In this document: positions 5,737 to 32,000 of the stretch, in pieces
Position numbering within the stretch: position 1 is the first letter of the stretch
How the letters are laid out: the number at the start of each line of letters is the position of its first letter
Source: an uncultured archaeon
GTDB taxonomy: Archaea > Iainarchaeota > Iainarchaeia > Iainarchaeales > DATDZZ01
Direction of reading: 5' to 3'
Length of the DNA stretch: 32,000 nucleotides
NCBI GenBank assembly: GCA_964373795.1
Contig: CAYJVY010000011.1
Coordinates: 13,141-45,140 of the forward strand
Program-made: the position numbers and the translations under genes
The notes under the pieces: model-generated
Seen by the model: the letters and a program-made list of their open reading frames with translations, nothing else
The model's database searches: none
Told to the model about the DNA's origin: nothing

Positions 5737-5802
5737 TCACGAACGAAGTGAGCATGCTCAGTCAAAGACTGTGCGCATACTCTTCGGACGTTACGGCGAT
5801 GT
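5737..5802 (+). ncRNA. GC-rich island B: candidate structured 5' leader or co-transcribed small RNA of tRNA-Cys
   Basis: About 65 nt of GC-rich sequence between the TATA-like box and tRNA position +1. It contains the perfect 12-nt palindrome TGAGCATGCTCA (5749-5760) and shares TCACG..AAC, GCTCAGTCAAAG and CTTCGGxCGTyAC with islands A and C. Confidence 0.3.
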
Positions 5803-5873
5803 GGTGGAATGGCAGATCGGCTATGCGCTCGCCTGCAGAGCGAGATAGGAGGGTTCAACCCCCTCTTCCACCT
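5803..5873 (+). tRNA. tRNA-Cys (GCA)
   Basis: Manual cloverleaf. Acceptor GGTGGAA/TTCCACC, D-arm GCAG-ATCGGCT-ATGC, anticodon arm CTCGC-CTGCAGA-GCGAG (anticodon GCA), T-arm GAGGG-TTCAACC-CCCTC, discriminator T. CCA is not encoded. Confidence 0.9.
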
Positions 5874-7182: not shown

Positions 7183-10100
7183 ATGAAATCAATTGCTTGG
7201 TTTAAAGAAATCAAAAAAGAAGACGTAGGAATAGTTGGAGGAAAAGGAGCTAATTTAGGGGAAATGGTTAACGCAGATTTTCCAGTTCCTCTAGGATTTT
7301 GCATTACTGCTCAAGCATACTTTAAATGGCTTGAAGACACTGGATTAAAAAAAATAATAATTAAAAAAATTAATTCAATTGACGTTGAAAACACTGAACA
7401 ATTAGAGCAAACAACTAAAGAAGTAAGAGAACTAATTATTAAAAAAGATTTAAGTCTAGACTTAAAATCAGAAATACTTAAAGCCTATCACACTTTAAGC
7501 GAGAAAAAGATTGGATGGATTGGATTAACTGAATATGTTTACGTAGCTGTTCGTTCAAGTGCAACAGCAGAGGATTTACCAAGCATTGTTGAAGACTCAC
7601 ATGTATTAGTAAAAATTAATGGCAAAACAATTTATGACTCAATAAAAAATATTTACAACCTTTATGGAGATTGCACAAATAATGAAGTAGAAGTTATTGC
7701 TCTTGAAAACAATGAAGCTAAATGGATAAAAGCTCAACAAATATATTGTCATCCAGCAAAAGAAAAAAAATTATATAAAATAGTAACAGAAACAGGAAGA
7801 GAAATAACAATCACAAAAAACCACACATTAATAGTCTTAGATGAAGATACTTTGAATCCTAAAACAATTTCTATTGATGAACTCAAAAACGGCCAAAAAG
7901 TTCCAGTAACAAAATCAATTCCATTTATTGATTCTAATTTGAAATTCATAGATGTATTGGAATACATTCAAGATAATGACATATTTTTAGAAGAAGATTT
8001 AGTTTACATTAAAAATAATTCCTCCAATTGGACAATTCAAAACCCGTTAAAAAGACATATTTCAATAAACAAAAACCTTGCTTATTTTTTAGGACTGTAT
8101 TGCGCAGAAGGAAGCACATATCTTGAAAACGGAGTAATAATAACAAACTCAGATAAAAATGTAATAGAAAAAACAAAAACGTTTTTAAGAGAACTTGAAT
8201 TATACAACAATCAAAAAATAAACAAGCATTCCATTAGAGTTTATTGTAAAACATTAGTAAGACTTTTGCACGTCATTATAGGCAAACCTTTGAATATTAA
8301 AGGAAAAGGAAAATCAGCACAAATAAAAAAGGTTCCAAACTTTATTTTTGATTGCTCAAAAGAAATTATTGGAACTTTTTTAAGCGGTTGTTTCGATGGA
8401 GATGGATATATTGGTAGAGAAGCTATAGAATACACATCAATATCTGAAATGTTAATTGGAGGAATTGTAAAGCTTTTAGAATTACTAAATATAAATTTTT
8501 ATATTCGAAAGAAAAAAAATACTTTCACCATATATATTCCTGCTTCACAAGCAGAACAATTCAAAAACATGATTAATTTAAATCATTCTGAAAAATCAAA
8601 AAAATTGGATAATTTGATTACAAGGTATAATAAAAGAGAAAAACATGCAGAATTCAAAAACCCGTTCATTGTTTCCCCAACCTTGTCAAAAAACCTAAGA
8701 AACGCCTTTAATGAAACACTAGAAAAAAGACTTGGAGAAATTGCAAAATGCATTCAATGCAAAAACTCTGTAGAAAAAACAAGTTACTATAAAAATAGAT
8801 TAAGATATTATTGCAAACACTGTAAAAAAACATTTTATGAAAAAGAAATCATAAAAGAAGAAATTGATAAATATGTTTACTATGATGAAAAAGGCAGATT
8901 CAAAAAATATTTTACTCCGTGGAATAAAGCACTAATTAGGGGAAGATTGTCTAGTACAAGGTTTGAAAAATTTATTAAAAAAAATAATTTGAAAGATTAT
9001 GTGCAATTTTTTAATAATAGTGTTTTGTGGGACCAGGTAAAAGAAATTCAGGAAATTGATTACAATGGAATGGTTTATGATTTTACTGTGCCAAAAATAG
9101 AAAACTTTGCGGCTGGATTAGGAGGGATCATTACTCATAACTCAGCCTCTTTTGCAGGGCAGCAAGACACTTACTTGAATATAATTGGCGATCAAAAATT
9201 ATTAGATGCAGTAAAAAGATGCTGGGCTTCATTGTTTAATGCAAGAGCAACTTATTATAGAAAAAAACAAGGATTTAGAACAGAAAAAGTAGGAATATCA
9301 GTGGTAGTGCAAAAAATGGTTAACTCTGAAGTAGCAGGAGTAATGTTTACTTCCACTCCAACAGGAGATGAAACAAAAATAGTGATTGAAGCAGCATATG
9401 GATTAGGAGAGGTAGTTGTATCAGGAAGCGTTACTCCAGATACATACATTCTAGATAAAGAATCGCTACAAATTTTAAGCAAAAAAACTTCAACTCAAAC
9501 TTGGATGACAATAAGAAAATCTGGGGCAAGCCAAAAAGAAGATGTAAACGAAAAAATGCAAGAAAAACAAAAACTTGAAGACAAGCATATAATTGAGTTA
9601 GCTAGAATTGGAAAACGAATTGAAGCTCATTATGGGCATGCACAAGACATTGAATGGGCTTTAGAAAATGACAGGCTTTATATTGTGCAATCAAGAGCAA
9701 TTACAACTTTAGGATTAGGAAAAAAAGCTTTAGAAAAAGAAACTCAAAAAATTGAAACAACTGCAAAACCTTTAATTATTGGATTAGCTGCTTCTCCTGG
9801 AATTATTTCAGGAAAAGTAATAATTGTTCCAACAGTTGAAGATATTCAGAAAGTAAAAACAGGAGACATTATTGTAACAATAATGACTGATCCAGACTGG
9901 GTTCCAATAATGAGAAAAGCTTCAGGAATAATTACAAACGAAGGAGGATCAACTTGTCATGCAGCAATTGTTTCAAGAGAATTAGGAATTCCATGCGTTG
10001 TTGGAACAGGAAATGCAACAGATATTTTAAGAGACAACGAAGAAATAACTTTAGATGGATTTACTGGAAGAATTTTTGAAGGAAAAATCGCAATATCCAA

Positions 10101-11247
10101 GCCAAAAGAAGAATTAGAAAAAAAAGAATTAATTCAAGAAAAAGAAATAAAAAAAATTGAAACAGCTTTGGAAAAACTTGATTTAAAAGAAATTGAAAAA
10201 GAAGAAAAAGAATCAAGGAAAGCATTAGATGGAAGATTAGAGGAATTAAAAAAAGAAATAAAAGAACACGAAGAAGAATTACTGAAACTAAAAGAAATTG
10301 AAAAAGAATCAAAAGAAAAAGCTAAAGAAGGATTAACTGAATTGCTTGCAAAAAGAGCAATTAAAGTTAAAGTAAATGTTGCCTTGCCTGATGCAGCAGA
10401 AAAAGCAGCTAAAACAAATGCAGACGGAGTAGGCTTATTGAGAGCGGAACACATGATTACTGCTTCAGGAATTCATCCAGCAAACTTTATTAGAGAAGGA
10501 AAAAAACAAGAATTAGTGAAAACAGTTAAAGAAGGAATTAAAAAAGTAGCAGAATTATTTAAAGAAAAACCAGTATGGTATAGAACATTTGATGCTAGAA
10601 CAGATGAATTCAGGCACTTAAAAGGAGGAGAAAAAGAACCAAAAGAAGCCAATCCAATGCTTGGATGGCATGGAATTAGAAGAGCTTTAGATGAACCAGA
10701 AATAATTAAAGCAGAGTTCACTGCAATAAAAGAATTAGTAAAAGAAGGATTCAATAATATCGGAGTAATGCTTCCATTTGTTGAAGCAGTTGAAGAAGTA
10801 AAAAAAGCAAAAGAAATAGCTAAAAGCATTGGCTTACAACCATTAAAAGACGTTGAATTCGGAGTAATGATTGAAACCCCTGGAGCAGTATGGATTATTG
10901 ATGAATTAATTGAAGAAGGAATAAGCTTTATTTCATTTGGAACAAACGATTTAACTCAGCTTACTCTTGGATTGGATAGAAATAATGAAAGAATTCAAAA
11001 ATGGTTTAATTCAAAGCATCCAGCAATTCTAAGGCAATGCGAATACGTAATAAAAAAATGCCTTAAAGCAGGGGTAAAAACATCTATTTGCGGACAAGCA
11101 GGATCAGATCCTGAAATGGTGAAAAAATTAATTGAATACGGAATTACAAGTGTTTCCGCAAACATTGATGCAGTGGAAAAAATTAAAGAACTAGTTCTAG
11201 AAGAAGAAAAAAAGAAAATCTTAAACAAAATCGATAAAGAAAACTAG
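7183..11247 (+). CDS. ppsA: Phosphoenolpyruvate synthase (pyruvate, water dikinase), intein-containing
   Basis: N-terminal ATP-grasp region (GGKGANLGEM, VAVRSSATAEDLP / SASFAGQQDTYLN), phosphohistidine domain (GGSTCHAAIVSRELGIPCVVG) and C-terminal PEP-utilising barrel (GLLRAEHMI, IETPGA, FGTNDLTQ). It is interrupted by an intein at 7582-9141. Confidence 0.9.
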   Translation: MKSIAWFKEIKKEDVGIVGGKGANLGEMVNADFPVPLGFCITAQAYFKWLEDTGLKKIIIKKINSIDVENTEQLEQTTKEVRELIIKKDLSLDLKSEILKAYHTLSEKKIGWIGLTEYVYVAVRSSATAEDLPSIVEDSHVLVKINGKTIYDSIKNIYNLYGDCTNNEVEVIALENNEAKWIKAQQIYCHPAKEKKLYKIVTETGREITITKNHTLIVLDEDTLNPKTISIDELKNGQKVPVTKSIPFIDSNLKFIDVLEYIQDNDIFLEEDLVYIKNNSSNWTIQNPLKRHISINKNLAYFLGLYCAEGSTYLENGVIITNSDKNVIEKTKTFLRELELYNNQKINKHSIRVYCKTLVRLLHVIIGKPLNIKGKGKSAQIKKVPNFIFDCSKEIIGTFLSGCFDGDGYIGREAIEYTSISEMLIGGIVKLLELLNINFYIRKKKNTFTIYIPASQAEQFKNMINLNHSEKSKKLDNLITRYNKREKHAEFKNPFIVSPTLSKNLRNAFNETLEKRLGEIAKCIQCKNSVEKTSYYKNRLRYYCKHCKKTFYEKEIIKEEIDKYVYYDEKGRFKKYFTPWNKALIRGRLSSTRFEKFIKKNNLKDYVQFFNNSVLWDQVKEIQEIDYNGMVYDFTVPKIENFAAGLGGIITHNSASFAGQQDTYLNIIGDQKLLDAVKRCWASLFNARATYYRKKQGFRTEKVGISVVVQKMVNSEVAGVMFTSTPTGDETKIVIEAAYGLGEVVVSGSVTPDTYILDKESLQILSKKTSTQTWMTIRKSGASQKEDVNEKMQEKQKLEDKHIIELARIGKRIEAHYGHAQDIEWALENDRLYIVQSRAITTLGLGKKALEKETQKIETTAKPLIIGLAASPGIISGKVIIVPTVEDIQKVKTGDIIVTIMTDPDWVPIMRKASGIITNEGGSTCHAAIVSRELGIPCVVGTGNATDILRDNEEITLDGFTGRIFEGKIAISKPKEELEKKELIQEKEIKKIETALEKLDLKEIEKEEKESRKALDGRLEELKKEIKEHEEELLKLKEIEKESKEKAKEGLTELLAKRAIKVKVNVALPDAAEKAAKTNADGVGLLRAEHMITASGIHPANFIREGKKQELVKTVKEGIKKVAELFKEKPVWYRTFDARTDEFRHLKGGEKEPKEANPMLGWHGIRRALDEPEIIKAEFTAIKELVKEGFNNIGVMLPFVEAVEEVKKAKEIAKSIGLQPLKDVEFGVMIETPGAVWIIDELIEEGISFISFGTNDLTQLTLGLDRNNERIQKWFNSKHPAILRQCEYVIKKCLKAGVKTSICGQAGSDPEMVKKLIEYGITSVSANIDAVEKIKELVLEEEKKKILNKIDKEN
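7582..9141 (+). mobile_element. Intein (520 aa) with LAGLIDADG homing endonuclease in ppsA
   Basis: Begins SIVEDSHVLV (block A with Ser-1), block B ITKNHTLIV, LAGLIDADG motifs LAYFLGLYCAEGS and FLSGCFDGDGYI, and ends GGIITHN followed by Ser+1. Removing it restores the conserved AEDLP-SASFAGQQ. Confidence 0.85.
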
Positions 11248-13117: not shown

Positions 13118-13232
13118 GGGCCTGTAGCTCAGTTGGTAGAGCACATGACAAATTAAATCATTCAATAATTAATGATTGGTTTGGGTGAAGCTCTTAACCA
13201 TGGGGTCAGGGGTTCGAATCCCCTCAGGCTCG
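13118..13232 (+). tRNA. tRNA-Lys (CUU) with a 42-nt intron
   Basis: Acceptor GGGCCTG/CAGGCTC, D-arm GCTC-AGTTGGTA-GAGC, T-arm AGGGG-TTCGAAT-CCCCT. Joining 13147 to 13190 gives anticodon stem CATGG/CCATG and loop CTCTTAA (U33, anticodon CTT, A37). Confidence 0.85.
13148..13189 (+). other. tRNA intron at the non-canonical position 30/31
   Basis: The intron ACAAATTAAATCATTCAATAATTAATGATTGGTTTGGGTGAA has an internal hairpin AATCATT/AATGATT. Its boundaries are inferred only from restoring the anticodon arm. Confidence 0.6.
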
Positions 13233-15768: not shown

Positions 15769-16428
15769 CTATTTTTTTCTTCCAACAATTAATGCATGAT
15801 CTTTTTCAAAAGGCTCTAAAAAAAGCACTTGCAAAACATTAAAGTCTTTTTTCAAGCTTTCCTCAACTTCTTTGAAAACCTTTTTAGGATTTGCAGCAAC
15901 ATCAATTGAACGAGCCTTTACAGCTAACAAGCCAATGCCATTTTTCTTTAAAAAGCATTCAGCATTCTTCAAAAAAATCTCGCTTTGATTTTTTTGAGAA
16001 ACATCTTGAAACAATACATCTACTTCTAAAACAAATTCTTTATACAATTCAGGATGATTGGCGGACTGCATTATTGGAACTAAATTTTTTCTTTTCTCGC
16101 AAAGCATTACAAATTTCCTCATTACTCGAGCAGAAATATCAACTCCAAAAACAACTCCCTTTAATCCAACAATATCCGAAATATGGGAAACAGTTGTTCC
16201 TTCAGCGCTACCCAAATATAACACTCTTGAACCATCATTAAATGGAAATGTTTTCAAACCCTTTTTAATTGCTGCTCCTAATTTAGATCTTTGAGGCTTC
16301 CACTCTCTATATTCAACTCCATTAAATTTGAACAAGTTTTCTCCATAAACTTTTTCTCCTGGAACAAGGTTTTTAGTTACAAGTTTATTTTTAAAAACAA
16401 AAAGTCCTGGAAAAATTTGTTTAAGCAT
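15769..16428 (-). CDS. flpA: Fibrillarin-like rRNA/tRNA 2'-O-methyltransferase
   Basis: YREWKPQRSKLGAAI, VLYLGSAEGTTVSHISDIVG, GVDISARVMR and DVSQKNQSEIFLKNA are all typical fibrillarin blocks. It lies immediately downstream of nop5. Start placed at ATG 16428. Confidence 0.9.
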   Translation of the reverse strand: MLKQIFPGLFVFKNKLVTKNLVPGEKVYGENLFKFNGVEYREWKPQRSKLGAAIKKGLKTFPFNDGSRVLYLGSAEGTTVSHISDIVGLKGVVFGVDISARVMRKFVMLCEKRKNLVPIMQSANHPELYKEFVLEVDVLFQDVSQKNQSEIFLKNAECFLKKNGIGLLAVKARSIDVAANPKKVFKEVEESLKKDFNVLQVLFLEPFEKDHALIVGRKK

Positions 16429-16439
16429 AAAAATCAAAA

Positions 16440-17249
16440 TTAATTTCTTAAACCTTTAACTTGTTCTAAACGTTTTAGAAGACTTTTCTCTAAATCTTTT
16501 GCAATAAAGGCTTTACCAAAAAAATCTTCTTTAACTGCAATTGCAAGTTTTGCAGCTAAAGCCCTGGCTATTTTACCTTTTTGTTTTGGCTTTAATTCTT
16601 TAAGCATTGGATGCTGAAACAAATATCCATGCTTTGGAGGATTTGAATGAGTTTTTAAATGCTGAAACAAGGACTTTTCTGCTCCAAGAACTTGAAGAGT
16701 TGAAGAAGGCAAAAAAGCAAGTTTTTCTAGCGAACCCGAATGAGCTAAAAATCTTGCTCCAAGCAATCCTCCACATAAATAAGAAAAATTTGGAGCAACT
16801 TCTTTCATTCCTTGTTCAATGAATTCAACTAATTCTTTTCTAAATTTTTTTAAATTCAAAGCATTTCTTGCAAGAGACTGAATTTCAATTAAATCTTTTT
16901 CTGAAAGATTTGCTCCCATGGAAGTATTTACCTTGCTTAAAATTTCTTCAATCTTTTTCTCGTTTTTATAAAATGCTATTAAATATTTTTTAGAAAAATT
17001 TTTTCTTTCTCCAAGCAAAACACAATTCAAGTAAACTTCGTTGTCATTTAAAAGCAATTGAAGTTCAGGAAAATGCATTCCAAACCATTCAATACAGTGC
17101 TCAGATAATTCATTAAAAGATTCATCTAATTCATCAATAACTGAAACAGCTTTAACTAAATGCAAGTCTCTAGAAGAATACTTTTCTTTAACTTGTTTTT
17201 TTGTTTCAGCAATGAGTTTTTCACGAATTTCATTAAATGAGTTAGCCAT
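16440..17249 (-). CDS. nop5: Nop5 (Nop56/58) C/D-box sRNP protein, short form
   Basis: NOP-domain blocks EWFGMHFPEL, SMGANLSEKDL, APNFSYLCGGLLGARFLAHSGSLEKLAFLPSSTLQVLGAEKSLFQHLK, PPKHGYLFQHP and KGKIARALAAKLAIAVKED. At only 269 aa, the sequence starts directly in the helical region. Confidence 0.85.
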   Translation of the reverse strand: MANSFNEIREKLIAETKKQVKEKYSSRDLHLVKAVSVIDELDESFNELSEHCIEWFGMHFPELQLLLNDNEVYLNCVLLGERKNFSKKYLIAFYKNEKKIEEILSKVNTSMGANLSEKDLIEIQSLARNALNLKKFRKELVEFIEQGMKEVAPNFSYLCGGLLGARFLAHSGSLEKLAFLPSSTLQVLGAEKSLFQHLKTHSNPPKHGYLFQHPMLKELKPKQKGKIARALAAKLAIAVKEDFFGKAFIAKDLEKSLLKRLEQVKGLRN

Positions 17250-22650: not shown

Positions 22651-22720
22651 AATTCAAGTACCTGGTGCCTAAAATTCACTGCATTTTTCCCTCTGAAAAA
22701 ATGAAAACCTGGTGCCTAAA
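22651..22720 (+). repeat. Dispersed repeat, copy 1 (two ACCTGGTGCCTAAA units around a 33-nt spacer)
   Basis: 22659-22720 is identical to 28939-29000 (62/62), and similarity extends 8 nt further upstream with 2 mismatches. The internal 14-mer occurs at 22660-22673 and 22707-22720. Confidence 0.85.
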
Positions 22721-24761: not shown

Positions 24762-24868
24762 TAAAAAGTCCCTGAACATAATAGTGAAAACCAGTATAAA
24801 AATATTTGGCTTCAAAAAATTAATAAAATAAAACACATTTAAAGAAAAAAAATGAAGTGAATTCAAAA

Positions 24869-27613
24869 ATGAAATTAGAAGAAATAGATACAGCTCTAGT
24901 AATGGTTTTCAAGAAAAAACTAAAAAAATTACAAGAATTCAAAGGACAAGGAACTCAACTAATTTCCCTTTACCTTCCAGAAGACGTTGACAGAAGCTCT
25001 GTAATGAATCAATTAACTGAAGAAATCAGTCAAAGCTCTAATATTAAAAGCCCTCAAACAAGAAAAAACGTTCAAGGAGCTCTAAGAAAAATAATTAATT
25101 TCTTAAAACACATTAACTTTAAACTACCAAAACACGGATTAGTCGTGTTTGCAGGAAACATTGCAGAAGCCGGCAGATCAGACATAATTCTGCAAACCAT
25201 TAACCCAATAAAAGACTTAAGAACAAAACTTTACTGGTGTGATTCAGAATTTCATTTAGCTCCATTAAAAGAAATGATTACTCCAAGCGATGTATATGCA
25301 TTAATTACAATGGATAAAAGAGAAGCAACAATTGCAAGCCTCATAGGAAAAAAATATGAAATAGTTGGACACTACACTTCAAATGTTGCTGGAAAAACAA
25401 GGGCAGGCGGACAATGCCTTTCTCCAGATTCACTAGTTCAATTAAGTAATGGAGAAATACTTCAAATAAAAAACTTACACAACCCATTAACTCTTTCAAG
25501 CTTTGATTTTTCAGAAAATAAATTAAGTCATTCAAAAATTGTTGACAAATGGGAGAACAAAAAACAATTGATTAAAATAATTACAAAAAAACCTCGCACA
25601 GAATTAAATTGTTCTCCAGACCATTTATTTTATGTATTTGAAGACAATAAAGTAATTGAAAAATCAGCAAAAGAACTAAAATTTAATAACAAGTTATTAA
25701 TGCCTGAAAAAATCAAAACAGAGGCAGAAAAAATTTTATTAAAATCAAAGCAATACTTCAATAGTTTCATTTTAACTAGCAAAGGAAGAAAAAAATTAAT
25801 AAATGCAAGGAAAATAAATAACTTAAGCCAAAAACAACTTGCAAACAAAACACAACTAACTCAAACAGCTATATCTTCTATTGAGTTAGGTAAAAGAAAT
25901 TCTAGAAAAAATGTTATAAAAAAGATTTGCAATTCACTTGAAATAAATTTTTTAAATTTTATAAAGCAAAACTGTAAAGAGAATTCAACCCTTAATCTAC
26001 CAAAAGCTATTGATGAAAAACTAGCTAAAATAGTTGGATACTTTTTAGGAGATGGAAACTTTGAAAAAGAAAGAATTAATTTTTCCGAGCAATCAAAAGA
26101 AGTTATTAAAAAATATGCCGAATTAATTAAAAAATATTTTAACTGTAATACATCTTTAAAATTTAGAAAAAATAAAGGATATTATTCTTTAAGAGTCTAT
26201 GGTAAGCCAATAGTTGAATTACTAAAAAATGAATTTCCAGAACTAAAAAAAAGTAAAGATAGCTTAATTCCATCAAAAATATTGAAATGCAATAATACAA
26301 TACTTGCAAATTTTTTGAATGGATTATTTGATGCAGAAGGATTTATTTCAAAAAAAAGAATTGGTTTTGCAGCAAATAACAAGTTATTAGTTCAACAAAT
26401 TCAATTAGCTTTACTTAGGTTTGGAATAATTGCTTCATTACACGAATATAATAACAGAGCCAATAAATACAGCAAAAACCATCGATTCTCTATTGACATA
26501 GCTGAAAAAGAATCAATTAAAATCTTTAAGCAAAATATTGGTTTTACAAATTCACAAAAACAATTCAATCTAGAAAAAGCAATTAAAAGCAAATCAAATA
26601 AAAGCCTCGTTAGACAAATAGTTTTTAATGGAAGCAATATAAGAAAAATAATTGAAAAACATGGATATAATTTACAGTTATTTCCAAAAGTAACAAACTT
26701 TTTTAGAAATGAAAGAAATATGGGTAAAGAGATTTTTAAAAACTCAATATTAAATTATGTCAAAGACAAAAAATTATTTAATGAATTAAAAAAAATATAT
26801 CAATATCCACTTATTCCAGTAAAAGTACATTCAATTGAAAAAACAAATATTCAAACAAAAATGGTTGACATTTCAGTTCAAAATCAAAGCTTTGTTTCAA
26901 ATGGATTATTAGTGCATAATAGCTCTCAACGTTTTGAGCGTTTAAGAGAGGAAGCCGCACACGACTTTTATAAAAGGGTTTCAGAAAGAATGAATGAAAT
27001 ATTTGTTCCAGTTGAAGAAAAACTAAAAGGAGCAATAATTGGAGGCCCTGGAATGACTAAAAATCATTTCCTTGAAAGAGAGTTACTAGATCATAGAATA
27101 AAGAAAAAAATAATTGGAATATTAGATGCATCTTACACTGATGAATCAGGGATAAGAGAATTAATTCAAAAATCAGAAGAACTATTAAGAGACACTGAAT
27201 TAATGAAAGAAAGAACAATAATAAATAAATTCTTGGAAGAAATAGCAAAAAACGGTTTAGCAGCTTATGGACAAAAAGAAGTAGAAGAAGCATTATTAAT
27301 AGGAAAAGTTTCAACACTAGTTTTGTCAGAAGCATTAACTTGGAGTGTATTCAGAGTTGAATGCGAGTCATGCAATAAAATTGAAGACATAATTGTAAAA
27401 GAAATTGAAAAATTTGAATCAAATAAAATTAAATGTTCTTCTTGTAGTTCAAGTCAAATCGAAGTATTAGAAGAAATTGATTACGTTGACTTCATGCTTG
27501 AAAAAGCTCAAAAGATTAGTGCAGAAACAATAATTGTTTCAACTGACACAGATGAAGGAGAACAATTCTTTAAAGGATTTGGCGGCATAGGGGCAATCCT
27601 TCGATACAAATAA
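24869..27613 (+). CDS. prf1: Peptide chain release factor aRF1, intein-containing
   Basis: NIKS motif (SSNIKSPQTRKNV), GGQ motif (KTRAGGQ) separated from SSQRFERLREEAAHDFYKRV by an intein, and a C-terminal domain with a CxxC..CxxC knuckle. The extein is about 412 aa, normal for aRF1. ATG 24869 is preferred over GTG 24857. Confidence 0.9.
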   Translation: MKLEEIDTALVMVFKKKLKKLQEFKGQGTQLISLYLPEDVDRSSVMNQLTEEISQSSNIKSPQTRKNVQGALRKIINFLKHINFKLPKHGLVVFAGNIAEAGRSDIILQTINPIKDLRTKLYWCDSEFHLAPLKEMITPSDVYALITMDKREATIASLIGKKYEIVGHYTSNVAGKTRAGGQCLSPDSLVQLSNGEILQIKNLHNPLTLSSFDFSENKLSHSKIVDKWENKKQLIKIITKKPRTELNCSPDHLFYVFEDNKVIEKSAKELKFNNKLLMPEKIKTEAEKILLKSKQYFNSFILTSKGRKKLINARKINNLSQKQLANKTQLTQTAISSIELGKRNSRKNVIKKICNSLEINFLNFIKQNCKENSTLNLPKAIDEKLAKIVGYFLGDGNFEKERINFSEQSKEVIKKYAELIKKYFNCNTSLKFRKNKGYYSLRVYGKPIVELLKNEFPELKKSKDSLIPSKILKCNNTILANFLNGLFDAEGFISKKRIGFAANNKLLVQQIQLALLRFGIIASLHEYNNRANKYSKNHRFSIDIAEKESIKIFKQNIGFTNSQKQFNLEKAIKSKSNKSLVRQIVFNGSNIRKIIEKHGYNLQLFPKVTNFFRNERNMGKEIFKNSILNYVKDKKLFNELKKIYQYPLIPVKVHSIEKTNIQTKMVDISVQNQSFVSNGLLVHNSSQRFERLREEAAHDFYKRVSERMNEIFVPVEEKLKGAIIGGPGMTKNHFLERELLDHRIKKKIIGILDASYTDESGIRELIQKSEELLRDTELMKERTIINKFLEEIAKNGLAAYGQKEVEEALLIGKVSTLVLSEALTWSVFRVECESCNKIEDIIVKEIEKFESNKIKCSSCSSSQIEVLEEIDYVDFMLEKAQKISAETIIVSTDTDEGEQFFKGFGGIGAILRYK
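25415..26920 (+). mobile_element. Intein (502 aa) with LAGLIDADG endonuclease and an XRE-type HTH, inserted after GGQ of aRF1
   Basis: Begins CLSPDSLVQL, block B NCSPDHLFYV, HTH NLSQKQLANKTQLTQTAISSIELGKRN, LAGLIDADG motifs IVGYFLGDGNF and FLNGLFDAEGFI, and ends NGLLVHN followed by Ser+1. Confidence 0.85.
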
Positions 27614-28930: not shown

Positions 28931-29000
28931 AATTCAGTTACCTGGTGCCTAAAATTCACTGCATTTTTCCCTCTGAAAAAATGAAAACCTGGTGCCTAAA
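28931..29000 (+). repeat. Dispersed repeat, copy 2
   Basis: See copy 1. The 14-mers are at 28940-28953 and 28987-29000. It starts 8 nt after the truD stop and ends 72 nt before the next start codon. Confidence 0.85.
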
Positions 29001-29072: not shown

Positions 29073-30029
29073 ATGATTCAAGAAATACTTCTTTTCACAG
29101 GGTTTTTCATTATTTCCTTTGTATGCGTTTTTGTAATAAAAAAAATTAATTTTCAAAAAGGCATTCAAGGAATTGACATTAACAAAGAAGATCAAAAAGT
29201 TTTGCCTGAATCAACTGGAATTGCTTTACTAATTCCATTATTTTTAATTACTCTTTACGAAGTGCTTGTATTAAAAGAATTAAATTTCATTCCATGGATT
29301 TCACTAACAACTGTTTTTGCTTTTGTTGGATTCTTTGACGACACTAGACACAAATTTAAAACAAAAACATTGTCTTGGAGTATTAGAGCAATTCCAATGG
29401 CAATTTCCTCACTTTTATTTGCATACATTTTTTCTTTAGAGCCTGCATGGCTTTGGTTTATTCCACTAGCATTATACATTTCCGGAATTGCATCATATCA
29501 AAACACTTTAGCTGGATTAAACGGATTAGAAATTGGCTCTGGATTCATTATAAGTTTATTCACTTCATTCATTTTATGGAATACTCCAATGAAGTTTGCA
29601 GCAATTGTTTTAAGTGCAGCCATTCTAGGATTGCTTGCATGGAACAAGTTTCCAGCAAAAGTTTTCCCAGGAGACTCAGGAACACTATTAATTGGATCAG
29701 CAACTGCAACTCTTTTCCTGTTAACTAAAAACTTTGAATTAATTTTACTCGGATTTTTACTATACCTTCCTCACATGATTGACTTCTTTATTTTAAAAAC
29801 TCTTACAAGCCAAGGAGACAAAACCCAACAAAAATTTCGCCCATACAAATTACTAAAAGACAACAGACTAGCAATTCCATCTTATCCAGATGGAAAAATA
29901 AGATATGATTTAGCTAAACTAGTAATAAAAATTTTCGGGCCATTAAAAGAATGGCAAATAGTATTAGTGCTATGGGTTGTTGTAATCTTAAATGGATTAA
30001 TAATGCTTTTTTTATTCAAAAAAATCTAA
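29073..30029 (+). CDS. Glycosyltransferase family 4 (MraY/WecA/AglH-like polyprenyl-phosphate HexNAc-1-P transferase)
   Basis: Polytopic membrane protein with FVGFFDDTRH, NGLEIGSG and VFPGDSGTLLIG blocks. Confidence 0.8.
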   Translation: MIQEILLFTGFFIISFVCVFVIKKINFQKGIQGIDINKEDQKVLPESTGIALLIPLFLITLYEVLVLKELNFIPWISLTTVFAFVGFFDDTRHKFKTKTLSWSIRAIPMAISSLLFAYIFSLEPAWLWFIPLALYISGIASYQNTLAGLNGLEIGSGFIISLFTSFILWNTPMKFAAIVLSAAILGLLAWNKFPAKVFPGDSGTLLIGSATATLFLLTKNFELILLGFLLYLPHMIDFFILKTLTSQGDKTQQKFRPYKLLKDNRLAIPSYPDGKIRYDLAKLVIKIFGPLKEWQIVLVLWVVVILNGLIMLFLFKKI

Positions 30030-30030
30030 C

Positions 30031-30179
30031 GCACGCCGTTCAGCCGGCGAGGCTGAGTCAAAAGCCGGCGAGGCTGAGTCAAAAGCCGGCGAAGCTGATG
30101 CAGAGCAGCCGGCGAGGCTGAGTGCTCACGTGAACATCGGCTTAATCGGCCGAACGCCTCGCATCCGCCGGGCGTGACT
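30031..30179. repeat. GC-rich island C with 21-nt tandem repeats
   Basis: AGCCGGCGAGGCTGAGTCAAA occurs at 30042-30062 and 30063-30083 (identical), with degenerate copies starting at 30084 and 30107. The 3' part carries blocks TCACG, TGAAC, TCCGCCGG and GCGTGACT, shared with island A. Confidence 0.8.
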
Positions 30180-30183
30180 GCAA

Positions 30184-31302
30184 CTAGTGAAACTTTATTA
30201 CATAATGACTTCTTCCTAAAACAATGCTGAACAACATGCTTGCAATTGTTGGAATAACTAGTCTCACTACATCAAATGCAATTAATACTGCTCCAATTTC
30301 ACTTAAAGAAAGCATTGTTTTTCCAGCAATTAATGGAAATGAAAGAAAACTATATCCAACTAATTCAACTAATCCAATTCCTCTTGGAAGAAAAGGAGTT
30401 TTTTCAAGCAAAGCAATTAAAACAAATAACACTAAAATAAATTCTAACTGCAAATTAATTCCTAAAGAATAAAAAGTAAAAGTTAAAGCTAAAAACTCTA
30501 AAGCAAATGAAAGAAAGGAAAGAAAAAACACTGCAACAAAATGTCTTTTCTTTACTCTATGCAAGTAAAAAGTGTATTTTTCAAAAAACAATCCTATTTT
30601 GAATATCAATCCTTCAGGTTTTCCAAAGCCTTTAAAAAAATTTGCAATCCTTAAACCAATTGATTTATTTAAAGGCAAGAAAAACATTAACGCAGAAAGC
30701 AATACAACCATAAACCCACTTAACAATCCAAGCAATAAAATTAATTCAATTCCAGTGAAAACAAGTTTAATTAAATAAAAGTATAAAACAAGTGAAGCAA
30801 AAATTGACAGCAATAAAAACTTTGTTCCCTTGTTTACAAGAGAAGCTGCAACAGATTCATTATAACTAATTCCAAAATATTTCTTCAACCTAGTTGACCT
30901 TAAATACTCTGCTCCAAGTTGAATTGGAGTTAAAGACCCAAAAAAAGAAGAAAAACCCACTGCCAACAAGTTCCTATACCTAATAATGTTATGCTTTTTA
31001 ATCAAGTAACCCCATGAAAAAACCCACACAAATATCTCTAAAATAAATAAAATGCTTGCCAAGGCAAAAAAAAACAAATTAATTGAAGTTAAAGAATTAA
31101 AAGCCTCTGTAAGGGATCCAATTACAACAAATAATACAGTTAAAACAATTAGTGAAAGAATTGCTCCTTTTAAATGCTTGTTCACTTTCAAAACCTTGAA
31201 GAAATTAATTAATTTAGATTCAATATTTAAATTTAAGGATTTAAGAATTAGAATCCTTCTTTGAAATTTTTCCAAGTTTTCCTGTTCTAAAAAGCCTGTC
31301 AA
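30184..31302 (-). CDS. Polytopic membrane protein (UPF0104 / lysylphosphatidylglycerol-synthase-TM-like flippase-like family)
   Basis: 372 aa with about 8 TM segments and a basic N-terminal region before TM1. This architecture is typical of the family often found beside glycosyltransferases. The start is uncertain because of a 62-nt overlap with the upstream gene. Confidence 0.45.
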   Translation of the reverse strand: MTGFLEQENLEKFQRRILILKSLNLNIESKLINFFKVLKVNKHLKGAILSLIVLTVLFVVIGSLTEAFNSLTSINLFFFALASILFILEIFVWVFSWGYLIKKHNIIRYRNLLAVGFSSFFGSLTPIQLGAEYLRSTRLKKYFGISYNESVAASLVNKGTKFLLLSIFASLVLYFYLIKLVFTGIELILLLGLLSGFMVVLLSALMFFLPLNKSIGLRIANFFKGFGKPEGLIFKIGLFFEKYTFYLHRVKKRHFVAVFFLSFLSFALEFLALTFTFYSLGINLQLEFILVLFVLIALLEKTPFLPRGIGLVELVGYSFLSFPLIAGKTMLSLSEIGAVLIAFDVVRLVIPTIASMLFSIVLGRSHYVIKFH

Positions 31303-31921
31303 CTAAATCGTTCACGTTTTCAATTTTTTCTGAAGCATCTCCATACATTAAATTCATTACTTGCACTGAAACCCTTTCCACATCCTTTGCTTCCTTTGGA
31401 TAAATTGTTACTTGATTTTTTTGCAACACAACAATTGATTTCTCTAAACCCTTATTAGGGTATTCAACTTTAATTAAAACACTTGTTTCAAGATTTGAAA
31501 ACCTTTCACTACACTCCTCTAAAGACAATTTCACTGCCTTTTTTGGATCACCTAAATTAGTAGTACAAGAAATAAGTTTTTTCTCTGAATCTAATTCTCT
31601 CCACAAGTTTTCCACTCTTTTACTGCTCTGAATGAAAACAACATTAAACACGTTAGCAGAGCCAAGCATTAAAGAATTCACTAAATCTCCTTGCACTAAA
31701 ACAGGCGAAGCAATAAAGCTTTCTTGCTCGCCTAATTCCTTCAAATACTGCGAAGGTTTTTTCAAATCACTTGAAAAAACAATTCCATCAAACTCTTCAT
31801 TAAATTCATACTTTTTAACAGACTTAGTTAAAATAAAACCAGCCACGCCCAAAATTAATACAATTAAAACAACAGCTAAAATCATTGAATAAGATCGCTT
31901 CATTAAAAAACCATTCAACAA
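31241..31921 (-). CDS. Hypothetical N-terminally anchored protein
   Basis: 226-aa ORF with one TM segment (ILAVVLIVLILGVAGFIL) and then a soluble domain. No motif recognised. Confidence 0.5.
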   Translation of the reverse strand: MLNGFLMKRSYSMILAVVLIVLILGVAGFILTKSVKKYEFNEEFDGIVFSSDLKKPSQYLKELGEQESFIASPVLVQGDLVNSLMLGSANVFNVVFIQSSKRVENLWRELDSEKKLISCTTNLGDPKKAVKLSLEECSERFSNLETSVLIKVEYPNKGLEKSIVVLQKNQVTIYPKEAKDVERVSVQVMNLMYGDASEKIENVNDLVDRLFRTGKLGKISKKDSNS

Positions 31922-32000
31922 AAAGAATTTAAATCCAATTTAACCTCCAACAACTATTTAAAGAAAAAGTATTACAAATTTAAATAGTGGTTAAAAAATG

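Follow-up and report, generated by a model that had tools for sequence, protein, structure and literature searches.

The two convergent genes for a family 4 glycosyltransferase (GT4) and an LPG_synthase_TM-family membrane protein of a Candidatus Diapherotrites (DPANN) archaeon are separated by a GC-rich island that is real, derived, tandem-repeated and non-coding, and that has no homolog in the collections searched. We tentatively explain it, with somewhat less than even confidence, as the insertion of an orphan palindromic repeat, GC-rich and non-coding, of the same kind as REP/BIME elements, MITEs or GC clusters, which grew by slippage and is passive in the 3' UTRs of both genes. That it arose as a mobile or selfish element, grew by slippage and is transcribed passively is inferred from its features. 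All positions refer to the window, that is, the whole 32-kb stretch of DNA that was analysed.

A composition scan of the window gave a G+C content of 65.1% for positions 30030-30179, compared to a mean of 29.5% for the window as a whole, which confirmed the GC-rich island in AT-rich DNA that had been claimed in an earlier, sequence-only reading. The 154 nt between both stop codons have 65% G+C and the remaining intergenic stretches in the window 11-37%, and the top 60-nt G+C peak of the whole window (0.67) lies inside the island. The tRNA-Cys region is the sole other island in the window with a comparable G+C contrast. As that reading had also proposed, the gap between the convergent stops is filled exactly, the flanking stop codons being the GT4 TAA at 30027-30029 and a minus-strand stop (CTA on the plus strand) at 30184-30186.

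Tandem Repeats Finder assigned the island a period of 21 with 3.8 copies (score 118, span 30042-30123). The two identical and two degenerate 21-nt copies that had been described were recovered at 30042, 30063, 30084 and 30107 (Table 1), and so were the four GCCGGC palindromes, at 30043, 30064, 30085 and 30108. The units are spaced by 21, 21 and 23 bp, the last value resulting from two additional bases after copy 3. In copy 3, a G-to-A change (GAGGC to GAAGC) removes one pair from the 4-bp stem of the unit hairpin. With up to three mismatches allowed, four occurrences of the 17-nt core were counted in the 32-kb window, compared to 0.00 expected. The whole window holds five GCCGGC sites (the four of the island and one elsewhere) vs. 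0.30 expected, a number reached in 0 of 100 shuffles. The identity of copies 1 and 2 suggests that slippage was recent.

The hairpin TCGGC/GCCGA proposed for the right part of the island was found in place. The outer and long-range complementarity that had been claimed fared less well: the motifs exist (GCCTCG at 30156-30161, CGCCGG at 30166-30171, CACGCC at 30032-30037 and GGCGTG at 30171-30176), and the segment with the degenerate inverted core could pair with CACGCC or with any repeat core, but the pairing is at chance level. Between the 45-nt ends, the best gapped match, taken as a terminal inverted repeat, scores 15, a value equalled or exceeded in 133 of 1000 dinucleotide shuffles.

Table 1. 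Coordinates of the GC-rich island, its internal features and the flanking genes in the window
Feature	Position	Strand	Description
GT4 gene (left flank)	29073..30029	+	Glycosyltransferase family 4, dolichyl-phosphate GlcNAc-1-P transferase type; full length
Seven-T run	30019..30025	-	Within the last GT4 codons, directly past the island
Island	30030..30179	.	Non-coding insertion of ~150 bp filling the gap between two convergent stop codons
Island end sequences	30032..30061 and 30121..30150		Left and right
Repeat copy 1	30042..30062	+	AGCCGGCGAGGCTGAGTCAAA; palindrome GCCGGC and small hairpin AGCC-GGCGA-GGCT
Repeat copy 2	30063..30083	+	No difference from copy 1
Repeat copy 3	30084..30104	+	81% identity to copies 1 and 2
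Repeat copy 4	30107..30127	+	81% identity; 17-nt core unchanged, tail differs (GCTC for CAAA)
Near-palindrome centred on CACGTG	30123..30136	.	TGCTCACGT / ACGTGAACA
Hairpin TCGGC-ttaatcg-GCCGA	30137..30153	.	Arms 30137-30141 and 30149-30153
Degenerate inverted repeat core GCCTCG..CGCCGG, then GGCGTG	30156..30176	.	Read from the sequence
LPG_synthase_TM-family gene (right flank)	30184..31185	-	Membrane protein of 333 aa; full length compared to relatives

That the island is genuine DNA was supported by three Logan contigs, which come from k=31 assemblies independent of the window's own assembly and are all 100% identical to the window. In run ERR3478686, one contig (28971-30061) encodes the exact GT4 protein and reaches 31 nt into the island, and a second one (30121-31934) encodes the exact 333-aa membrane protein and reaches 59 nt into it from the right. 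In run ERR4904391, a third contig (30137-31407) encodes the same exact 333-aa protein and extends 43 nt into the island from the right. Both junctions are thus reproduced at 100% by contigs from two runs, which excludes, at these junctions, the mis-assembly that the sequence-only reading had raised as a possibility. The central part, 30062-30120, is covered by the window's assembly alone and, therefore, the exact repeat number depends on that assembly. The left contig enters the island by 31 nt and does not end at its edge, so that an empty-site allele is not indicated.

The ends of these contigs carry further information. When the window was modelled as a k=31 de Bruijn graph, ends were predicted at 28968 and 28971, at a 62-nt repeat (see below), which are the Logan ends observed there. 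For the island, this model places the breaks at 30071 and 30063, because copies 1 and 2 have identical 30-mers in common; the ERR3478686 contigs end at 30061 and 30121, i.e., 10 nt and 58 nt short of the predicted branch points. These early breaks suggest further copies or alleles of the island in the sample. They correspond to the pattern given by a second sequence that shares both island end sequences (Table 1) and differs outside or between them, which could be a variant allele or another copy with other flanks. Strain variation, or a low coverage of GC-rich DNA, could equally explain these breaks, and two more ERR3478686 contig ends are without explanation, at 26375 (in the eRF1 intein) and at 31934 (upstream of the gene at 31921).

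To place the island in its lineage, we compared the locus with that of relatives, of which the nearest have GT4 proteins 50-61% identical to that of the window. The gene order eRF1-TruD-GT4, with the convergent LPG_synthase_TM next and a hypothetical and an S-layer gene beyond it, is kept in four Diapherotrites lineages (L003-5, L006, L140, L141). In these four relatives, GT4 and LPG_synthase_TM have 3' ends with an overlap of 4, 27 or 47 nt or with a 12-nt gap between them, and no comparable GC island was found in the ~56 kb of their DNA around the locus. The C-terminus of the window's GT4 (ending in FKKI before the stop) matches those of the relatives through the final residue. For the membrane protein, the likeliest start is the GTG at 31185, which yields the 333-aa product recorded in public assemblies. 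Since the relatives have no spacer and both proteins are full length, ~150 bp were added exactly between the stops and neither gene was damaged. The island is thereby shown to be a derived insertion. Of the MITE-like insertion considered in the sequence-only reading, it is the insertion itself that stood, by virtue of the four relatives without the spacer, but the terminal inverted repeat was not significant and no other copy was seen in the window or in the collections searched.

Other small repeats were observed in this clade. A 62-nt dispersed repeat (TACCTGGTGCCTAAAATTCACTGCATTTTTCCCTCTGAAAAAATGAAAACCTGGTGCCTAAA, with the internal direct repeat ACCTGGTGCCTAAA) is present in the window at 22659-22720 and 28939-29000 in two 100% identical copies, both upstream of plus-strand genes (dph2 and GT4). 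The second copy sits in a 149-nt gap between TruD and GT4, genes that abut or overlap in four relatives (L003-5, L140, L141); in the relative L006, other genes lie between TruD and GT4. It may represent a small mobile insert, or else an operator or promoter element common to both genes. In the closest relative, L002 (GCA_030650135.1), a 28-nt GC-rich hairpin (TTTTGTCAGGGTNCCGNAGGNACCCTAC) was found at 521-548, 1585-1612 and 1677-1704, that is, in three copies within 4.5 kb, each immediately past a gene end; its sequence differs from that of the window island. The final ~40 nt of the L002 GT4 gene are duplicated along with the hairpin. The hairpin has the look of a REP-like family that sits at the 3' ends of genes in the clade. 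From the L002 hairpins and the 62-nt repeat it follows that small hairpin repeats at gene ends exist in this clade.

Several other identities of the island were examined and discarded. A coding fragment was rejected, as the concatenated translations of four frames had no match at E ≤ 10 among 5.8 billion proteins. The island's G+C is flat over codon positions (0.61-0.72), and it is spanned by open frames in two cases out of six, which, by our estimate, is expected for 150 nt at 65% G+C. A readthrough or frameshift extension of the flanking genes was also rejected: the in-frame extension of the LPG_synthase_TM gene comprises 13 codons, and the C-terminus of GT4 is conserved to its end. CRISPR repeats are 23-50 nt long and alternate with unique spacers of like length; here, the 21-nt units are joined head to tail without spacers, and a CRISPR array was therefore rejected as well.

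Homologs of the island were sought in several collections. With blastn against plasmids and phages, chance matches alone were obtained (22-41 nt, E values of 0.1-0.4, e.g., in Stx phage tail-fibre genes). The 17-mer had five single matches in viral contigs of 48-67% G+C, with no wider similarity. When the two-core pattern, the right-arm 22-mer and the CPR-type unit were run against the viral contigs, either GC-rich phage coding matches or none were retrieved. The tandem pattern (at least 1.3 units) yielded two chance single-copy matches in 185,579 GTDB species genomes (the source genome not being among them), one in a Rhodospirillaceae MAG and the other in a Gammaproteobacteria MAG. The exact 21-mer was absent from the JGI metagenomes, and a second island copy was not found in the 32-kb window. 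A search of the literature on DPANN GC-rich repeats and on both run accessions returned no relevant item.

A loose two-core pattern was found in metagenomes at at least 120 loci, nearly all of them in coding DNA of 58-80% G+C. Among the matches listed, the gap measured 10 nt in 105 of 141, a length that dominates because a 21-nt period preserves the reading frame (GCC GGC GAG GC = A-G-E-A). These loci were rejected as homologs and attributed to a coding-frame effect in GC-rich DNA. Two outliers among the matches listed, L084 and L100, are 37% G+C contigs of Patescibacteria (CPR), as judged from their genes (murF-mraY-murD in L084; YraN-like, GIY-YIG and CCA-adding-like in L100). Each has a GC-rich tandem array, the one in L084 (1753-1800) being 22 nt x 2.2 and the one in L100 (1-100) 21 nt x 4.8. 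Like the window island, these arrays have the core GCCGGCGAGGC and a hairpin with a GGCGA loop. The stems, however, differ (AGCC/GGCU in the window, CUAGCC/GGCUGG in L084 and CCUGCC/GGCAGG in L100), the linkers are unlike and the hosts are bacterial; further, the GCCGGCGAGGC core is the search pattern itself, and similarity ends at 11-14 nt. We regard the two arrays as a suggestive lead and not as homology. As to their settings, the L084 array lies within a 408-nt hairpin-dense murF-mraY spacer (1506-1913), between the two arms of a perfect 11-nt inverted repeat (GTCATTCTGGC/GCCAGAATGAC), and in L100 an HTH-type open reading frame passes through the array as PASPAGG repeats.

We also compared the island with known classes of small repeats. 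In common with REP, BIME and REPIN elements, it consists of short GC-rich imperfect palindromes that are extragenic and non-coding and lie at gene 3' ends or between convergent genes. The clustering of REP/BIME units in direct and inverted orientation is likewise seen, with four direct AGCC/GGCT units and the degenerate inverted core at 30156-30171. In contrast, a genome with REPs holds tens to hundreds of them, together with a RAYT transposase, while one cluster is visible here and no RAYT was present among the 30 window proteins; moreover, the unit hairpin is just 4 bp long and the host is archaeal, REPs being bacterial. Only the position and the architecture of REPs are thus found in the island, and family membership cannot be claimed for it.

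In the AT-rich mitogenomes of yeasts, the intergenic regions of elevated G+C are GC clusters, which form hairpins, are polymorphic for presence or absence and are presumed to be mobile (PMC7846184; de Zamaroczy and Bernardi 1986, as cited therein). The island shares with them that it is an isolated, GC-rich, hairpin-forming, intergenic and non-coding stretch in an AT-rich genome, present or absent according to lineage. It differs from them in that they belong to another domain of life, are unrelated in sequence and form multi-copy families, whereas one island copy is visible. MITEs, archaeal ones included, are also shorter than 500 bp, non-coding and intergenic and have foldback potential. Unlike in MITEs, the terminal inverted repeat of the island is at chance level, and no convincing target-site duplication, further copies or parent IS element were found. 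A possible target duplication is AAC, at 30028-30030 and 30181-30183, three bases being uninformative.

According to the explanation that we prefer, the orphan palindromic repeat insertion, a short GC-rich sequence would have landed in the few bases between the stops of the convergent genes, about the sole spot in a tightly packed genome where coding regions and promoters would be spared. Replication slippage or unequal recombination would then have raised its 21-nt unit, built around GCCGGC, to four copies. The island would probably have no dedicated function and would probably be a passive passenger in the transcripts of GT4 and LPG_synthase_TM, at their 3' ends. In line with this are the four relatives without a spacer at the site, the junctions confirmed in independent contigs, a composition foreign to the genome (65% vs. 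29.5% G+C), the identity of two of the four copies and the lack of an RNA-family or tRNA match (see below). The 62-nt repeat as another small intergenic insert of the lineage, the different 28-nt GC hairpin with three copies at gene ends in L002 and the analogy with yeast mitochondrial GC clusters (PMC7846184) point in the same direction, and the early Logan contig ends hint at extra copies or alleles.

The orphan insertion is nevertheless weakened by several observations. No second copy was seen in the window, the viral contigs, the GTDB species genomes or the JGI metagenomes, the terminal inverted repeat was not significant, and a candidate target duplication of just 3 nt is too short to count. 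The 30 window proteins that were scanned include no transposase, RAYT or integrase; they are housekeeping proteins, two of them with inteins. The early Logan breaks, too, are open to causes such as coverage or strain variation, given that the ends at 26375 and 31934 are equally unexplained, and the plus-strand folding score of the array (z = -2.82) also fits an RNA role. As it stands, the island is a genuine oddity, a singleton without comparative support.

Part of this evidence would also suit a one-off capture, in which GC-rich filler from a co-resident organism or element was ligated at break repair and remained single-copy, immobile and functionless, its unit being expanded later by slippage. 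We consider such a capture possible but unlikely. It would account for the one copy that is visible, the foreign composition, the absence of a significant terminal inverted repeat and the lack of mobile-element genes nearby. No donor was found, however: the 21-mer is absent from the JGI metagenomes, and the tandem pattern had no more than two chance single-copy matches in 185,579 species genomes; nor did the four translations match any of the 5.8 billion proteins at E ≤ 10. The early Logan breaks also point, if faintly, to several copies or alleles.

The second alternative is a structured RNA specific to the lineage and read from the plus strand, either an independent small RNA of ~150 nt or an element of the GT4 3' UTR. 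Its design, as drawn from the sequence, would be four AGCC-GGCGA-GGCU hairpins serving as protein-binding sites and closed by a CACGCC/GGCGUG helix. The G+C content of the island equals or exceeds that of the tRNA genes of the window, and there is a precedent: Klein, Misulovin and Eddy reportedly found, in 2002, ncRNA genes of AT-rich hyperthermophiles by means of GC islands. A TATA-like AT-rich sequence can be read ~25 nt upstream of the island on either strand. On the minus strand, the seven-T run (Table 1) is a possible archaeal oligo-T stop for transcripts crossing the island. A terminator and promoter scan of the bacterial type, not designed for archaea, returned none.

The search for known RNA families upheld the earlier statement that the island matches neither tRNA, SRP, RNase P, C/D nor H/ACA RNAs. 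With Rfam on both strands of the island at E ≤ 10, the sole match was isrC, with 14.8 bits vs. a threshold of 39 (E = 2.8). The gathering-threshold Rfam scan of the whole window detected two tRNAs alone, both outside the island, and ARAGORN found no tRNA and no tmRNA in the island. An archaeal C/D sRNA was considered and rejected. These RNAs are 50-70 nt long and have a C box RUGAUGA, a D box CUGA, internal C'/D' boxes and guides of ~12 nt; in the island, the sole C-like box is CUGAUGC at 30094-30100, and the next CUGA is 17 nt off, where the guide should be ~12 nt. The C'/D' candidates fit at 4/6 and 3/4 positions. The genes for fibrillarin and Nop5 are adjacent on the minus strand of the window (15769-17249), so that the box C/D RNP machinery is present and C/D sRNAs are expected somewhere in the genome; no recognisable C/D sRNA was found in the 32-kb window.

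Folding gave z-scores of -1.08 (plus strand) and -0.49 (minus strand) for the island with short flanks, of -1.84 and -1.23 for the trimmed island and of -2.82 and -1.08 for the repeat array. Overall, the folding is weakly to moderately stable, and the plus-strand array alone departs clearly from shuffled sequence. In the plus-strand fold of the array, the palindromic GCCGGC cores pair across repeats. The hairpin at 30137-30153 appears in the minus-strand minimum-energy folds, plus-strand folds pairing this region in another register, and the pairing of the segment 30156-30176 is seen in plus-strand folds. The mild plus-strand bias could be explained by an RNA role or by a G-over-C skew plus G-U pairing.

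For a structured RNA, the better folding of the plus strand, both for the island and for the array, is hence on the positive side. This is counterbalanced by the z of just -1.08 with short flanks, by the origin of the array score in GCCGGC pairing between repeats and by the lack of an Rfam match above threshold even when E values up to 10 were admitted. The hairpin of copy 3 is broken, the helices listed in the sequence-only reading are no better than chance, and the box spacing does not suit an archaeal C/D sRNA. In addition, the element is absent at this site in the four relatives, with no GC island in 56 kb of their DNA. A plus-strand RNA or 3'-UTR element of this kind is, in our opinion, an unlikely reading too. 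Of the structured ncRNA first put forward, which had leaned on the rule that GC-rich islands in AT-rich archaeal genomes tend to be structured RNAs, the plus-strand array score is what remained; the missing Rfam and tRNA matches, island z-scores between -0.5 and -1.8 and the broken hairpin of copy 3 went the other way.

Going further, the island might represent a new archaeal regulatory RNA or shared 3'-UTR element, acting as a multivalent protein-binding platform of four tandem hairpins with GGCGA loops, or an unrecognised class of GC-rich hairpin minisatellites spreading through ultra-small AT-rich prokaryotes. The latter idea arises because the L084 and L100 arrays have the GCCGGCGAGGC hairpin core. 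Both versions together are, in our judgement, distinctly unlikely.

Improbable as well is an array that acts at the DNA level, the third candidate of the sequence-only reading, in which the four GCCGGC sites and one inverted site would be bound cooperatively by a dimeric protein in the manner of iterons or centromeres. The spacing of 21, 21 and 23 bp invites this notion, 21 bp being two helical turns and hence placing the sites on the same face of the DNA, and GCCGGC is otherwise nearly missing from the window. Plasmid iterons are likewise ~21-bp direct repeats in head-to-tail phase, at about two helical turns. In contrast to them, the island has no Rep gene or origin context and lies in a conserved chromosomal housekeeping neighbourhood. 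There is no adjoining Rep, Par or Orc gene, the 30 window proteins that were scanned contain none of these domains, the relatives lack the island, a place between two gene ends is an unusual position for an operator, and no G-string like that of origin recognition boxes can be read in the sequence.

Finally, an assembly chimera or contaminant junction, for which the abrupt, foreign change in composition and the coverage of 30062-30120 solely by the window's own assembly could be adduced, is very improbable, as independent k=31 assemblies of two runs match both junctions at 100%, the flanking genes are also neighbours in four relatives and there is no sign of an empty-site allele.

The meaning of the island depends on which of these readings applies. 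If it is merely an orphan repeat insertion, GC islands in AT-rich DPANN genomes are unreliable markers of RNA genes, and tiny, tightly packed genomes still accept small non-coding inserts at a "safe" site between convergent genes. In practical terms, the island would in that case also make a handy strain marker, as the repeat number may vary. A multi-copy state would place it among the earliest families of a REP- or GC-cluster-like type to be described from DPANN archaea, and a discrete transcript would make it a new small RNA, specific to the lineage and of unusual repeated-hairpin design.

Some further observations were made in the window. Directly upstream of tRNA-Cys (5803-5873) lies a moderately GC-rich stretch of ~58 nt (~5745-5802, plus strand), with a strong TATA-like box (aaatttatataat) ~25 nt further upstream. 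This stretch has no Rfam match and a folding z of -0.04, and it may be a long 5' leader of tRNA-Cys or a separate small RNA. A likeness between the island and this leader (gctcagtcaaag against gctgagtcaaaag) extends to 11 of 15 positions and was taken as chance. A tRNA gene of 115 nt at 13118-13232 (plus strand), presumably with an intron, was detected by Rfam with 51.9 bits and missed by ARAGORN in bacterial mode. Two genes are split by inteins: the one for a PEP-utilising enzyme of the pyruvate phosphate dikinase/PEP synthase type (7183-11247) and the one for eRF1 (24857-27613). The eRF1 intein is absent from the relatives L140 and L141 and also present in the relative L003. Both inteins of the window carry LAGLIDADG homing-endonuclease domains, and that of eRF1 has, in addition, an HTH_3 domain.
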